A stretch of 39,531 bases of DNA from an uncultured Gammaproteobacteria bacterium (GCA_964395755.1 CAYNBD010000001.1:1-39531); one strand, 5' to 3'; shown: positions 23,857 through 27,887, counted from the first letter of the stretch. Numbers and translations are program-made. The notes: a model not told the origin generated them from the letters alone.

Positions 23857-25371
23857 ATGGAATACGCGACATATCTTGTTCTGGCTGTGGGCGGTTTTTT
23901 TGTTGGCTACTGGATAAGGAAGAGAAAGGCTCTATCCGAGGTCGGAAGCGCTGAAGCCAAGGCGCAGAAAATTTTAGACGAGACTAAAACCAAGCAGCAG
24001 GAATTATTGCTTAAAGCCCAGGACAAGGCCCTCAAAATCATTGATGAAGCCAAAAAAGAGGAGGAAGGACGGCGGCGGGAGATAAATAATCTTCAGGCCC
24101 GGCTGGAAAAACGGGAAACCGCTTTTTCCCAAAAATTGTTGGAATTGCAGGACAAGCAGCAGCAGCTTTATGACAAGGTTAATAGAGTTGAAGAAGTCAA
24201 GGAAAAAATAAAACAGATTAAGGAAGAGCAGCTGGCCAAACTGGAAAAAATCGCCAAAATGTCCAAAGATGAAGCCCGGGAAGTTTTATTCAAAAACGTA
24301 TCCGAGAACATTAAGGAAGATTTAATGGTACGGATTAACAAGCTGGAAAAAGAAGCCAGCGAGTCGCTGGAAGAAAAAGCCCGGGATTTGCTCGCTGCCG
24401 CCATGCAGAGGCTGGTTTCGGCCTACACGCCGGAAATCACCACCACCACGGTTGATTTGCCCAGTGACGAAATGAAAGGCCGGGTCATCGGCCGGGAAGG
24501 GCGCAACATCAAAGTGATTGAGCAGTTAACCGGTACGGAAATTATCGTTGATGACACTCCCAACGTCATCACGGTTTCCGGTTTTTCCCCGATCAGGCGG
24601 CACGTGGCCAAAAGGGCCCTGGACCGTTTAATCAAAGACGGCCGGATTCAGCCCACCAAAATAGAAGCGGCCGTAGAAGACGCCCGCAAAGAACTGGCCC
24701 TGGACATTAAAAAAGCCGGGGAAGAGGCTTTGTACGAAGTCGGTTTGACCGGTTTTGATCCCAAGCTGGTGCAGATTGTCGGACGCTTGAAATATCGCTC
24801 CAGTTACGGCCAGAACGCTTTGCGCCATTCTTTGGAAGTGGCCCATCTGTCCGCTTTGTTGGCGGAAGAGCTGGGAGCGGACGTAACCGTCGCCAAGAAA
24901 GCCGGTTTACTCCATGATATCGGCAAGGCGGTTGACCATGAGGTCCAGGGCACGCATCCGGAAATCGGGCGCGATATCGCCAAAAAATTCAAACTGCCGC
25001 AGGAAATTATTGATCCGATTGAAACCCATCATGATGACAAGCCGCGCGGCCTGGTGTCCGTGATTGTCAAAGTGGCGGACGCCATTTCCGCGGCCCGGCC
25101 CGGCGCCCGGCGTGACACTTATGAGCAGTATCTGCAGCGCCTGGAAGAACTGGAAAAAATAGCCACTTCTTTTGCCGGCGTGGATAAAACCTACGCGATC
25201 CAGGCCGGCCGGGAAGTCAGGGTGTTCGTGATGCCGGAAGAGATTGACGACTTGAAAGCCCATAACCTGGCCCGTGACATTGCCAAAAAAATCGAGCAGG
25301 AATTAAAATATCCGGGCGAAATTAAAGTCAATGTTATCCGGGAAATGCGGGTGACGGAATATGCCAGATAA
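23857..25371 (+). CDS. rny: Ribonuclease Y
   Basis: N-terminal TM, long coiled coil, KH domain (GRVIGREGRNIKVIEQLTG), HD domain (LLHDIGKA, HHDD). Confidence 0.93.
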   Translation: MEYATYLVLAVGGFFVGYWIRKRKALSEVGSAEAKAQKILDETKTKQQELLLKAQDKALKIIDEAKKEEEGRRREINNLQARLEKRETAFSQKLLELQDKQQQLYDKVNRVEEVKEKIKQIKEEQLAKLEKIAKMSKDEAREVLFKNVSENIKEDLMVRINKLEKEASESLEEKARDLLAAAMQRLVSAYTPEITTTTVDLPSDEMKGRVIGREGRNIKVIEQLTGTEIIVDDTPNVITVSGFSPIRRHVAKRALDRLIKDGRIQPTKIEAAVEDARKELALDIKKAGEEALYEVGLTGFDPKLVQIVGRLKYRSSYGQNALRHSLEVAHLSALLAEELGADVTVAKKAGLLHDIGKAVDHEVQGTHPEIGRDIAKKFKLPQEIIDPIETHHDDKPRGLVSVIVKVADAISAARPGARRDTYEQYLQRLEELEKIATSFAGVDKTYAIQAGREVRVFVMPEEIDDLKAHNLARDIAKKIEQELKYPGEIKVNVIREMRVTEYAR

Positions 25372-25396: not shown

Positions 25397-25430
25397 AAAA
25401 AGAGGGAGCGGTGCAAACCGTTCCCCTTTT
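25397..25430. terminator. Bidirectional terminator between convergent genes
   Basis: AAAAGAGGGAGCGG TGCAAA CCGTTCCCCTTTT. Confidence 0.7.
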
Positions 25431-25436
25431 GATTGT

Positions 25437-25919
25437 TTAATAAATTTTAAACCTGAATTCGTAAGTATCTTTGCCGATTTTTTTTGGTTTTTTCAATTCT
25501 ACCCGGAAATGTTTTAGCTCTTTAGTGTTCTTTAGATGCCAGCCTTGACAGGGACATATTATTTGAGAAGAATGTGTCGGATAGCCAATGATTACCACTT
25601 CAACCAAAGCCCGGGTTGCTATCTGTTTTCCGTATTCTAAATAATATTCCGTAGAGCCGGCGGTTGTATCCGGCATCTTCGTCTTGATAATAGATAGTCC
25701 CCAATCAATGTATTCCTGAATCAAATCCTGAATCAGTTGGAAAGTGTCCGGCTGGCGCGGATCTATCCCCGGACTAAGGCGATAAACTACCCTCACCCGG
25801 CTACCCTTTTTTGCAAATGCTTGGGAATAAGCAAAACCACAAGCTTTAGCGATACATTCCCACAAAACGTGGTCATAGGTTTCAATCGCCCGGTTAATCA
25901 TTTCCTGGGTTTTTTCCAT
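25437..25919 (-). CDS. Hypothetical protein, 160 aa, no recognisable motif
   Basis: Intact ORF with a strong GAGGAGGAG Shine-Dalgarno. It lies on the opposite strand between rny and the ymdB-like gene. Confidence 0.55.
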   Translation of the reverse strand: MEKTQEMINRAIETYDHVLWECIAKACGFAYSQAFAKKGSRVRVVYRLSPGIDPRQPDTFQLIQDLIQEYIDWGLSIIKTKMPDTTAGSTEYYLEYGKQIATRALVEVVIIGYPTHSSQIICPCQGWHLKNTKELKHFRVELKKPKKIGKDTYEFRFKIY

Positions 25920-25924
25920 GATGC

Positions 25925-26165
25925 TCCTCCTCGTTTTTAGAGGGTTTGAGCGCGACAGGTACCCTGGGGAAAATAACTTGGCCGGGGCACTCCGGCTGTT
26001 ATTTCCTTTCCCGGGGTGAACGCCGTTGCTTTACAGCCGGAAGCAAGAGAGGGTCTTCTGACAGCGGAATTCAGCCACCCGGACTTACGTCCGCCTCTAA
26101 ATTCATATCAGTTCCGTTCTTGTTCGTCTGCCCCGCCTGTCAACGGGAATTTTTTAAAGAACTTC
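25925..26165 (-). ncRNA. Candidate structured 5' leader (riboswitch-like) of the 160 aa gene
   Basis: GC-rich and non-coding. The closing helix is GACAGG/CCTGTC (26136-26141 with 25954-25959). On the minus strand there is a CGGAC-GUAA-GUCCG hairpin with a GNRA loop (26080-26093). The loop of hairpin 26026-26046 is complementary over 8 nt to 25992-25999. A CCCUCU tract lies next to the SD. Confidence 0.4.
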
Positions 26166-26172
26166 AAATTAG

Positions 26173-26199
26173 CTTATACTTTAACAATAAAAATGTCAA
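26173..26199 (-). promoter_or_regulatory. Weak candidate promoter (TTGACA-15 nt-TATAAG) for the leader
   Basis: Reverse complement of TGTCAA (26194-26199) and CTTATA (26173-26178). The 15 nt spacer is suboptimal. Confidence 0.3.
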
Positions 26200-26240
26200 A
26201 TATTTGCCTAAAAAATAAACTTATGTTAGCATAAAACTAT

Positions 26241-26297
26241 AATCCGAATGCTCCGAATATTTATAAATAAATTATTTCGGTCATTCGGAGCATTTGG
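26241..26297. repeat. Word palindrome (CCGAAT/ATTCGG words)
   Basis: AATCCGAATGCTCCGAATAT faces TATTTCGGTCATTCGGAGCATTTGG. Confidence 0.8.
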
Positions 26298-26326
26298 ATA
26301 TATTTGTAGATTTGGATTATATTTTT

Positions 26327-27127
26327 ATGAGAAATATTAAAATCATTTTCATCGGCGACATTAGCGGCCGCATCGGCCGGCAGGCCGTGGCTAAAATTTT
26401 GCCCAAAATTAAAAAGCAGTACCAGCCGGATTTGGTCATTGCGAATGCGGACAACATTGCCCATGGTTCCGGCATTACCGAAGATACTCTTAAAGAGTTA
26501 ATGGCGGTCGGGATTGATTATTTTACCAACGGCGACCATTGTTTTGATCGGGCCAAGCAACTGGAATGCTACGATAAGCTGCCGGTTATCAGACCGGCTA
26601 ATTATTCGCCGGAAGCGCCCGGCAAAGGGTATGCTGTTTTGAAAATTAGGGGGCAAAAATTTTTACTGCTTAATTTAATCGGCCGGGTGTTTATGGACAA
26701 GGACCATGAATGTCCGTTTAGGCAGGCCGGGGAAATTTTGGCTATGTTTGCAAAAGAAAATTTATCTGCTATAATAATTGATATGCATGCCGAAGCCACC
26801 TCGGAAAAAGTTTCCCTGGCTCATTATCTGGACGGACGGGTGAGCGCGGTTCTGGGCACGCATACCCATGTTATGACCGCGGACGCGAACATTACGGATC
26901 AGGGCACGGCTTACTTGACTGATGTCGGCATGACCGGAGCCGCGGATGAATGCATAGGCGTAGCTAAGGAAGGCATTATCAAGACATTTTTGAGCCAGAT
27001 CAAGTATCCGCACGTGATTCCGGAAAAAGGCCGGGCCATGCTCAACGCGGTTTTGGTGGAGATAAATCCCAGGAATGCCCGGGCAACCGTGATTAAACCG
27101 ATTATTAAATTTGTTAATATAAAATAA
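26327..27127 (+). CDS. ymdB: YmdB-like metallophosphoesterase (2',3'-cyclic-nucleotide 2'-phosphodiesterase family, TIGR00282)
   Basis: IIFIGDISGRIGR, NADNIAHGSGIT, TNGDHCFD, DMHAEATSEK, GTHTHVMTAD, TDVGMTG. I prefer ATG 26327 over TTG 26294. Confidence 0.85.
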   Translation: MRNIKIIFIGDISGRIGRQAVAKILPKIKKQYQPDLVIANADNIAHGSGITEDTLKELMAVGIDYFTNGDHCFDRAKQLECYDKLPVIRPANYSPEAPGKGYAVLKIRGQKFLLLNLIGRVFMDKDHECPFRQAGEILAMFAKENLSAIIIDMHAEATSEKVSLAHYLDGRVSAVLGTHTHVMTADANITDQGTAYLTDVGMTGAADECIGVAKEGIIKTFLSQIKYPHVIPEKGRAMLNAVLVEINPRNARATVIKPIIKFVNIK

Positions 27128-27577: not shown

Positions 27578-27578
27578 G

Positions 27579-27651
27579 TGCGCCCAGGAGGATTCGAACC
27601 CCCGACCGTTTGCTTAAGAGGCAACTGCTCTACCAGCTGAGCTATGAGCGC
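27579..27651 (-). tRNA. tRNA-Lys (anticodon CTT), 73 nt, no encoded CCA
   Basis: Hand-folded cloverleaf: acceptor GCGCTCA/TGGGCGC, D stem GCTC/GAGC, anticodon loop CTCTTAA, T arm GGGGG-TTCGAAT-CCTCC, discriminator A. Confidence 0.85.
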
Positions 27652-27657
27652 TCATTT

Positions 27658-27738
27658 AGTTATAAAGTTTAAAGTAGAAAGTTATAAAATAAATTTTAAC
27701 ACTTTTAACTTTACAACTTTATAATTTTTACTAATTAG
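27658..27738. repeat. Word palindrome (AAGTT/AACTT words) between tRNA-Met and tRNA-Lys
   Basis: AGTTATAAAGTTTAAAGTAGAAAGTTATAAAA faces TTTTAACACTTTTAACTTTACAACTTTATAA. Confidence 0.8.
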
Positions 27739-27812
27739 TAGCTGGGGTGGGGATTGAACCCACGACCTTAGCGTTATGAGTGCTACGCTCTAACCAACTG
27801 AGCTACCCAGCC
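27739..27812 (-). tRNA. tRNA with CAT anticodon (elongator Met or lysidine-type Ile2), 74 nt
   Basis: Acceptor GGCTGGG/CCCAGCT (G1-U72 wobble), D arm GCTC-AGTTGGTTA-GAGC, anticodon loop CTCATAA, T arm GTGGG-TTCAATC-CCCAC. It lacks the three G-C pairs of initiator anticodon stems. Confidence 0.8.
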
Positions 27813-27815
27813 ATG

Positions 27816-27887
27816 TGCTCCCGTCAGGACTCGAACCCAAAATCCTTGGTCCGAAGCCAAGTGTGATATCCATTTCACCACGGGAGC
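27816..27887 (-). tRNA. tRNA-Arg (anticodon TCG), 72 nt
   Basis: Acceptor GCTCCCG/CGGGAGC, D arm GTGA-AATGGATA-TCAC, anticodon stem CTTGG/CCAAG with loop CTTCGGA, T loop TTCGAGT. Confidence 0.85.

Follow-up and report, generated by a model that had tools for sequence, protein, structure and literature searches.

We analysed a stretch of 39,531 nt from an uncultured Gammaproteobacteria bacterium (hereafter, the window). On its minus strand, the window contains an ORF of 160 amino acids, flanked by a divergent ymdB-like gene (plus strand, from 26327) and by the convergent gene for RNase Y (plus strand, ending at 25371). The 400-nt spacer upstream of the ORF consists of two halves that differ in G+C content. 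The region 26160-26330 has 20-27% G+C, as in the other spacers of the window, and the half adjoining the ORF (25920-26150; hereafter, the leader) has 53-59%, against 13-27% in the neighboring spacers. On the gene strand (minus, 26147-25917), the leader is non-coding and has 55-59% G+C. These results agree with the original prediction, made from the sequence of the window alone, of a non-coding region with an atypical base composition. The features of the unit are as follows.

26199-26194 and 26176-26171, minus strand: promoter-like site, TTGACA and TAAGCT separated by 17 nt (read from the sequence).
26147-25917, minus strand: leader, up to and including the start codon.
25919-25437, minus strand: ORF of 160 amino acids, AlaX-like (see below).
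25404-25425, both strands: G+C-rich hairpin flanked by T-runs, between the convergent genes for RNase Y and the AlaX-like protein (found by a scan on the plus strand and by reading the sequence on the minus strand).

Transcription is predicted to start near 26164. A promoter scan with default rules did not list the TTGACA/TAAGCT site upstream of the leader; the same TTGACA-N17-TAnnnT layout was seen by eye upstream of most of the homologous leaders described below. The hairpin at 25404-25425 is probably the end of a monocistronic AlaX-like transcript and a bidirectional terminator common with the RNase Y gene. From the promoter-like site, the G+C-rich leader, and the hairpin with its T-runs, we therefore describe the unit as a putative promoter, a leader of about 245 nt, one gene, and a terminator. 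The leader folds better than shuffled sequences do (z = -2.8 for the minus strand and -2.2 for the plus strand), which, taken alone, is weak evidence for a functional structure.

Two ORFs on the plus strand, of 90 (25946-26218) and 72 (26016-26234) amino acids, lie wholly over the leader. The covariation at the RNA level and the indels, which are not multiples of three, suggest that both are shadow ORFs. Upstream of the leader promoter, the AT-rich divergent region that extends to the ymdB-like gene contains a 17-nt inverted repeat (ATCCGAATGCTCCGAAT / ATTCGGAGCATTTGGAT, 26242-26258 and 26283-26299; 94% complementary, 24 nt apart), which could be an operator or a hairpin and which is the source of spurious miRNA-type matches in the Rfam searches. 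A cluster of the genes for tRNA-Lys(CTT), tRNA-Met(CAT), and tRNA-Arg(TCG) is located 1.4 kb upstream of the leader (27578-27887, minus strand).

The 160-aa gene had been called an orphan. A search with the single protein sequence gave 3 matches, a profile search gave 30 relatives, all unannotated, and an exhaustive HMMER search of 1.84 billion protein representatives gave 31 family members. HMMER gave no connection between this family and canonical AlaX, and sequence searches of the PDB with the protein and with its profile gave nothing useful. We then compared an AlphaFold2 model of the protein, built on 24 homologues (pLDDT 89.4, pTM 0.84), with the PDB by using Foldseek. The best matches were AlaX-S (1wnu, 1v7o, and 1v4p), a trans-editing protein of archaea, and the editing domains of AlaRS and ThrRS (E 3e-8 to 1e-3, TM 0.55-0.73, probability 1.0). 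Since the model has the fold of AlaX and of the AlaRS/ThrRS editing domains, we regard the gene as a divergent AlaX-like gene instead of an orphan.

With the Pfam family PF07973 (tRNA_SAD), the protein scores 21.1 bits, below the gathering cut-off of 24; weak sub-threshold matches over the segment CPCxGxHLxNT were obtained for 15 of 24 members (best E 2e-5). H17, C122, C124, and H128 are invariant in the family, and E13 is nearly so. We presume that E13xxxH17...C124xxxH128 corresponds to the AlaX zinc site HxxxH...CxxxH, which suggests that the protein has an ExxxH...CxxxH variant of this site. Judging from the modeled fold, the protein presumably acts on aminoacyl-tRNA.

We collected 17 distinct leaders, namely that of the window and those of loci L001, L011, L012, L014-L017, and L021-L029; the DNA of homologues P0036-P0050 lies outside this set. 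The leader was present at every homologous locus for which upstream DNA was obtained (17 of 17 sequences), in each case as 215-260 nt of non-coding sequence from a conserved 5' hairpin to the ATG. As the neighboring genes all differ among the loci (Mur ligases, ribosomal proteins, LepA, UvrB, SecG, transketolase, and others), the leader and the gene travel as a unit. The motif was seen only before this one gene family, and the loci were collected through that protein. A search with nhmmer found no second copy of the leader in the window or in any homologous locus. Two DNA-pattern scans of viral contigs gave 0 matches and 33 chance matches, respectively, and none of the latter fits the leader HMM.

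The leader of the window is the most divergent of the 17 (43-48% identity to the others; 53 bits against the family HMM). The leaders represent about three clades; thus, the independent compensatory events are fewer than the cell counts given below suggest. Most source contigs are from groundwater metagenomes (Rifle and Hainich). The only species-representative genome with the gene is that of L012 (CAYTIK010000028.1), a MAG labelled 'uncultured Bdellovibrionales'. The genes for tRNAs flank the unit also in L012, L024, and L028; those near the homologous loci have no consistent identity. Between the promoter and P1, some of the leaders form an additional small hairpin (CUGCC-UUU-GGCAG, or GGUGU-N7-GCACC with UUAACAA after it; L023 at about 2245-2262, L024 at about 780-796, L017 at about 1410-1428, and L025 at about 800-818), which the window does not have. 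In addition, the public gene calls P0004, P0006, P0017, P0019, and P0020 (at loci such as L016, L014, L028, and L029) start 30-60 codons early and translate the leader. These overlong calls are annotation artefacts that arise from the high G+C content and the scarcity of stop codons in the leader.

When a sequence-only MAFFT alignment was scanned blind for complementary columns in stacks, three long-range helices were obtained; averaged base-pair probabilities added P1, P2, P3, and P5. Because MAFFT alone misaligns P1 and P2 (the P1 loops vary in length, and gaps follow CAG), a hand alignment was made by segments, with 33 segments per leader, whose concatenation matches the raw sequences. RNAalifold, which cannot draw pseudoknots, drew the pseudoknot as a nested helix.

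Seven covarying helices were obtained: P1, P2, P3, P5, P6a, P6b, and a pseudoknot between a loop and a bulge. The original prediction had called for covariation in homologous upstream regions, and it was found across the 17 leaders. In the hand alignment, 95.8% of 787 cells are paired, compared with 74.8% in column shuffles (none of 1000 shuffles was as good), and 43 of 61 pairs have changed on both sides. When the 3' partner was slid by 1-3 nt, only 13-55% were paired, against 86-100% for the proposed pairs. The sequence-only MAFFT alignment (A4) gave 92%, against 29-40% when slid. By helix, the paired cells were 100% in P1, the pseudoknot, and P2, 98% in P3, 99% in P5, 88% in P6a, and 91% in P6b. 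As G.U cells outnumber A.C cells (61 vs 9), the RNA is on the gene strand. About 30 bases in junctions and loops are near-invariant, as in aptamers.

In the window, the elements of the leader, all on the minus strand and listed from 5' to 3', are as follows.

26147-26144 and 26135-26132: P1 hairpin, CCCG and CGGG, with a loop of UU and GACAGG.
26141-26136: 5' strand of the pseudoknot, GACAGG, in the P1 loop and directly adjoining the 3' strand of P1.
26131-26128 and 26036-26033: P2, (G)CAG and CUG(U), closing the long irregular P2 domain (26131-26034).
26122-26118 and 26048-26044: P2 extension in the window, CAAGA and UCUUG, from constrained MFE folds.
26113-26109: near-invariant junction AACUG, inside the P2 domain.
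26111-26106 and 26063-26058: outer part of the P3 arm, CUGAUA and UGUCAG (the arm spans 26111-26058).
26104-26100 and 26071-26067: inner part of the P3 arm, GAAUU and AAUUC.
26053-26045: conserved pyrimidine tract CCCUCUCUU, inside the P2 domain.
26025-26020: 5' strand of P6a (anti-sequestor), CGGCGU, of which GGCGU (26024-26020) pairs with GCGCU (25953-25949).
26017-26010 and 25968-25961: P6b, ACCCCGGG and CCCAGGGU, enclosing the P5 arm.
26003-25998 and 25977-25972: P5 arm, AAUAAC and GUUAUU, 99% paired.
25996-25981: P5 inner hairpin, GCCGG-AGUGCC-CCGGC.
25959-25954: 3' strand of the pseudoknot, CCUGUC, which bulges (6 nt) from the 3' side of P6 where P6b meets P6a.
25953-25948: switch strand GCGCUC (AYGCUC in the consensus), six bases that immediately follow the 3' strand of the pseudoknot.
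25943-25940 and 25932-25929: Shine-Dalgarno (SD) hairpin, CCUC and GAGG, within 25947-25917.
25932-25924: Shine-Dalgarno GAGGAGGAG, in the 3' half of the SD hairpin.
25919-25917: start codon AUG.

This analysis shows that about 210 nt of the leader form a conserved core with a pseudoknot between the P1 loop and the P6 bulge, a P2 domain containing P3, and P6b around P5. P1 has 14 distinct strand pairs, with both sides changed at five of six positions. The original prediction had GACAGG and CCUGUC, extended by GGGG/CCCC, as the closing helix of a nested domain. The pairing of these two strands was confirmed in all 17 leaders, with both sides changed at four of six positions in the MAFFT and hand alignments (variants include AAUAGG/CCUAUU, GAUGAG/CUCAUC, GAUGGG/CCCAUC, and GACGGG/CCCGUC), but it forms a pseudoknot and not the closing helix. 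The extension does not hold: CGGG (26135-26132) is the 3' strand of P1, paired with CCCG (26147-26144), and CCC belongs to P6b. Each of the 17 leaders has the geometry of an H-type pseudoknot, with a loop 1 of 1-2 nt, a stem of 6-8 bp, and a 5' strand that abuts the return strand of P1. This geometry would stack P1 on the pseudoknot, whose duplex energy is -4 to -9.5 kcal/mol.

P2 occurs in 10 distinct versions of 3-8 bp (e.g., CAGGCG/CGCUUG, CAGGUGC/GUAUCUG, and CAGGUAAA/UUUAUCUG), with a mean pairing probability of 0.59; the helix is short in the window but extended there by CAAGA/UCUUG, and it has 5-10 bp in the other leaders. The P2 domain also contains the tract CCRGAY...CCUCUU as well as the P3 arm, and its interior pairs differently from lineage to lineage. 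A second copy of CRGAY was considered as the partner of RUCUG (the b-t hairpin); it pairs in most leaders, though less well, but fails in L014, L015, and L028 and shows no compensation in L026. Because P2 (the a-t pairing) compensates where the b-t hairpin does not, we preferred P2, and the b-t hairpin is a possible alternative conformer. We also rejected an anti-SD as the main role of CCUCUU, whose partners in the folds are GG and a stretch of purines on the 5' side of AACUG. The triplets ACU, ACG, and ACC in AACUG, considered as a specifier codon for Thr, were rejected as well: L024 breaks the series, and the changes in L021 and L029 seem to be compensatory ones that keep the pairing. Among the 17 leaders, we found no triplet with the behavior of a codon, and the variants of AACUG fit pairing better.

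In P3, all seven positions have changed on both sides; the outer CUG/CRG pairing of this arm is weak and no better than in shuffles. An A-rich linker separates the P2 domain from P6a, in which position 2 is G-C in five and A-U in five distinct versions. P6b has both sides changed at 13 of 14 positions and was also recovered blind on the MAFFT alignment. The terminal loops of P3 and P5 (26079-26072 and 25991-25986 in the window) are usually alike, of the UGUGG/UGUGU/GGUGG type, with CGUUU in a minority of the P5 loops, and they could be repeated sites for docking or for protein binding.

Thus, the predicted multi-helix leader is conserved and covarying, whereas roughly half of the helices proposed for it were wrong or lineage-specific. 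The CGGAC-GUAA-GUCCG hairpin exists (26093-26080) as an insert in the P3 loop, which also carries a GGUGG element, but it is specific to a lineage; group A lacks it, and group B has a different hairpin. The AGAGG...CCUCU helix lacks conservation, and the MFE structure does not contain it. The UUGCUU/AAGCAA hairpin and the loop pairing proposed for it, between CCGGCUGU and ACAGCCGG, are specific to the window; CUG of that loop forms the 3' strand of the conserved helix P2, and ACAGCCGG falls within P5. Pseudoknot potential had been noted at this hairpin loop; the leader does contain a long-range pseudoknot, formed by GACAGG and CCUGUC.

At the 3' end of the leader, the switch strand AYGCUC has two mutually exclusive partners, GAGCRU in the middle of the leader (P6a) and a near-identical GAGCAU beside the AUG. 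In the window, it pairs either with 26024-26020 (P6a) or with GAGC at 25926-25923 (the base of the SD hairpin); the sequestor GAGCAU ends 1-4 nt before the AUG (25926-25921 in the window). Both pairings beat the shuffled and slid controls, the base of the SD hairpin being 86% paired. P6a is compensated in L028 (GAACAU/AUGUUC), and the SD hairpin in L014 and L015 (ACGCCC/GGGCGU). A second CCCUCU tract, 7 nt upstream of the SD, had been suggested as able to sequester it, and this was borne out: CCUC (25943-25940) pairs with GAGG of the SD (25932-25929) in a conserved SD hairpin, and the counterparts of these strands co-change in other leaders (by eye; UCC/GGA, UCCUG/CAGGA, and UCUU/GAGA).

The exchange of AYGCUC looks like a translational switch. 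As in the expression platform of a riboswitch, exclusive helices overlap the SD, and both pairings covary; as in an aptamer domain, the structured part of the leader is conserved and covarying. The unconstrained MFE structure includes the SD hairpin in 16 of 17 leaders, and the nested energies, which ignore tertiary structure, favor the SD hairpin (OFF) by 0.7-11 kcal/mol (mean 4.8). From these energies and MFE structures we infer the direction of the switch, namely an OFF state by default and an ON state stabilized by an effector. The pseudoknot can form in both states; therefore, it does not by itself discriminate between ON and OFF.

We searched Rfam 15 for known relatives of the leader. 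At gathering scores, the whole window gave only three tRNAs, all outside the leader; nothing was found on the leader at E<=10 in 25400-26400 of the window, nor on the leaders of ten homologous loci at E<=1. Thus, T-box, preQ1, glycine, guanidine, tRNA-like, and other curated families are excluded at this sensitivity, and the leader fold matches none of the 4227 Rfam families. This agrees with the failure of the original prediction to assign it to any known riboswitch class. The resemblance to preQ1-I remarked on there was not substantiated, as the family model gave no match; the sequence ACCCUCUAAAAAC makes up the loop of the SD hairpin together with its 5' half. Literature searches on AlaX or Patescibacteria together with riboswitches or T-boxes gave no description of the motif. 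We rate the leader as a structured regulatory leader of a new class; regulators of this general kind are known.

As to what the leader responds to, we tentatively put forward, as a possibility of somewhat less than even chance, that it is a new class of cis-acting translational control leader of a riboswitch-like kind, with a small-molecule effector linked to tRNA mischarging. Without the effector, the SD hairpin would win and translation would be off. Binding of the effector to the pseudoknotted core would stabilize P6a, which would keep AYGCUC from the sequestor strand and leave the ribosome-binding site free, giving an ON switch; ligand-stabilized tertiary structure plausibly could bridge the gap of 0.7-11 kcal/mol to the OFF state. 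Our best single guess for the effector would be an amino acid, either near-cognate or non-proteinogenic, or an indicator of such an amino acid, and the leader would then be an orphan riboswitch. A small-molecule riboswitch agrees with the size of the leader, its pseudoknot, its many invariant junction bases, and its textbook expression platform, and the guanidine riboswitches of CtdA provide a precedent (PMC10018355). However, the motif was seen before one protein family only, as is typical of autoregulatory leaders but unusual among metabolite riboswitches; protein autoregulation fits this linkage equally well. The encoded AlaX-like protein would bind its own 5' UTR and shift the balance between P6a and the SD hairpin, so that excess protein would cause feedback repression, by analogy with ribosomal-protein leaders or the E. 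coli thrS operator. The strict coupling of the motif to one gene family in otherwise unrelated neighborhoods points in this direction, and so does the RNA-binding editing-domain fold seen in the model of the product. By analogy, the stack of P1 on the pseudoknot would be a coaxial helix of 10-14 bp, the size of an acceptor arm, and the UGUGK-type sequences seen by eye in the P3 and P5 loops of most leaders could be repeated protein sites. The leader, however, is larger and more intricate than most protein-binding leaders (seven helices, a pseudoknot, and many invariant junction bases), it has no NCCA-like 3' mimic, and covariance models found no tRNA-like element or other match in it at E<=10; the P1 loops are also without the U33/R37 pattern. 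On balance, we consider autoregulation rather unlikely.

Given that the product presumably serves in the quality control of tRNA, the effector might instead be a tRNA (Ala, Thr, or Ser) that docks on the P2/P3 stem and P6, with its binding or charging state stabilizing P6a in a functionally T-box-like manner. The outline is indeed that of a translational T-box, namely an irregular stem with conserved internal loops and a bulged anti-sequestor that competes with an SD sequestor. The details argue against it and make it improbable: the Rfam T-box model gave no match in the 11 leaders searched; the bulge, located on the 3' strand, is not a UGGN box and is filled in cis, with covariation, by the P1 loop; no conserved codon-like triplet was found (the ACG and ACC variants of AACUG are broken by L024); and the nearby tRNA genes have no consistent identity. 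A leader that works independently of any effector, setting a fixed low level of translation, protecting the 5' end of the mRNA, or serving as an RNA thermometer or as a timer of co-transcriptional folding, would agree with the SD hairpin being the MFE state in 16 of 17 leaders, and RNA thermometers are known to work by the melting of an SD hairpin. For such a role, however, the SD hairpin alone would suffice; the conservation of a pseudoknotted core of 200 nt and a covarying anti-sequestor strand that duplicates the sequestor sequence would be left unexplained, and we give this reading little credence. Finally, a terminator scan lists the P5 inner hairpin GCCGG-AGUGCC-CCGGC with the following CAAGUUAUUUU (25996-25971) as terminator-like, as if transcription were attenuated within the leader. 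In the other leaders, the U-rich tract is located 8-20 nt past the P5 hairpin and serves as the covarying 3' strand of P6b; a U-run is missing from L026, and no alternative anti-terminator was found, so that attenuation is very improbable.

Returning to the riboswitch-like reading, and widening it to include tRNA, we consider it possible, though still short of an even bet, that the leader either represents a new class of riboswitch or is the first RNA other than a T-box to read the status of tRNA, and that it turns on a divergent AlaX-like enzyme under the threat of mischarging, e.g., by excess serine or glycine or by a non-proteinogenic amino acid. Structured leaders that hide a ribosome-binding site are already known; the covariation here is unusually clean and includes a pseudoknot and a three-strand switch, and the gene linked to the leader represents a rare branch of the AlaX editing-domain superfamily that had no annotation. 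A metabolite effector would indicate the substrate of this editing enzyme and add an amino-acid-type riboswitch class; if the effector is the encoded protein or a tRNA, the leader would be a new way to regulate proofreading. Should it sense mischarging, the leader would be the first RNA sensor dedicated to quality control in translation. Whatever the effector, the supposed orphan gene is re-annotated, and wrong public gene calls that run into the leader are flagged.

Among known systems, the translational T-box (e.g., actinobacterial ileS; RF00230) is likewise a long structured leader of a tRNA-related gene, with a long irregular stem upstream and a bulged anti-sequestor set against an SD-hiding hairpin. 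The leader studied here does not match the RF00230 covariance model and has neither a T-box sequence nor a UGGN bulge, nor any triplet that behaves as a specifier codon. The seven-nucleotide UGGN bulge of the T-box pairs with the NCCA end of a tRNA, whereas the bulge of this leader (CCUGUC, CCUAUU, or CUCAUC) is located on the 3' strand and has the P1 loop as its partner in cis. The cobalamin riboswitch has a kissing loop with a regulatory role (L5-L13), by which its sensor core is connected to the part controlling the ribosome-binding site. That system and this leader have in common a long-range loop pairing tied to control of the ribosome-binding site and a comparable size of about 200 nt. 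The sequences and helices are unrelated, with no Rfam match, and in this leader the pseudoknot does not include the SD, the three-strand exchange being adjacent to it. Like this leader, the E. coli thrS operator and the ribosomal-protein leaders are tied to one gene with an RNA-binding product and act at the level of translation initiation, but they are smaller and mimic a recognizable part of the natural RNA ligand.

The closest relative of the regulated protein is AlaX-S (Pyrococcus horikoshii PH0574; 1wnu and 1v7o), which is alike in fold and size (TM 0.65-0.71) and presumably shares the CxxxH motif (C124 and H128 in the 160-aa protein). The two differ in sequence, with 15-18% identity, and presumably in the first His of HxxxH, which would be Glu in the 160-aa protein (E13xxxH17). 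CtdA, a stand-alone editing protein, is controlled by guanidine riboswitches (PMC10018355). Its leaders differ from the one described here in that the latter matches no guanidine family, and the proteins differ in fold (B3/B4 in CtdA, AlaX/tRNA_SAD here). In both, a structured leader precedes the gene for a free-standing aminoacyl-tRNA editing factor, a presumed one in the present case, and guanidine-I/IV and CtdA (PMC10018355) are thus a precedent for the control of such a factor by a structured leader.
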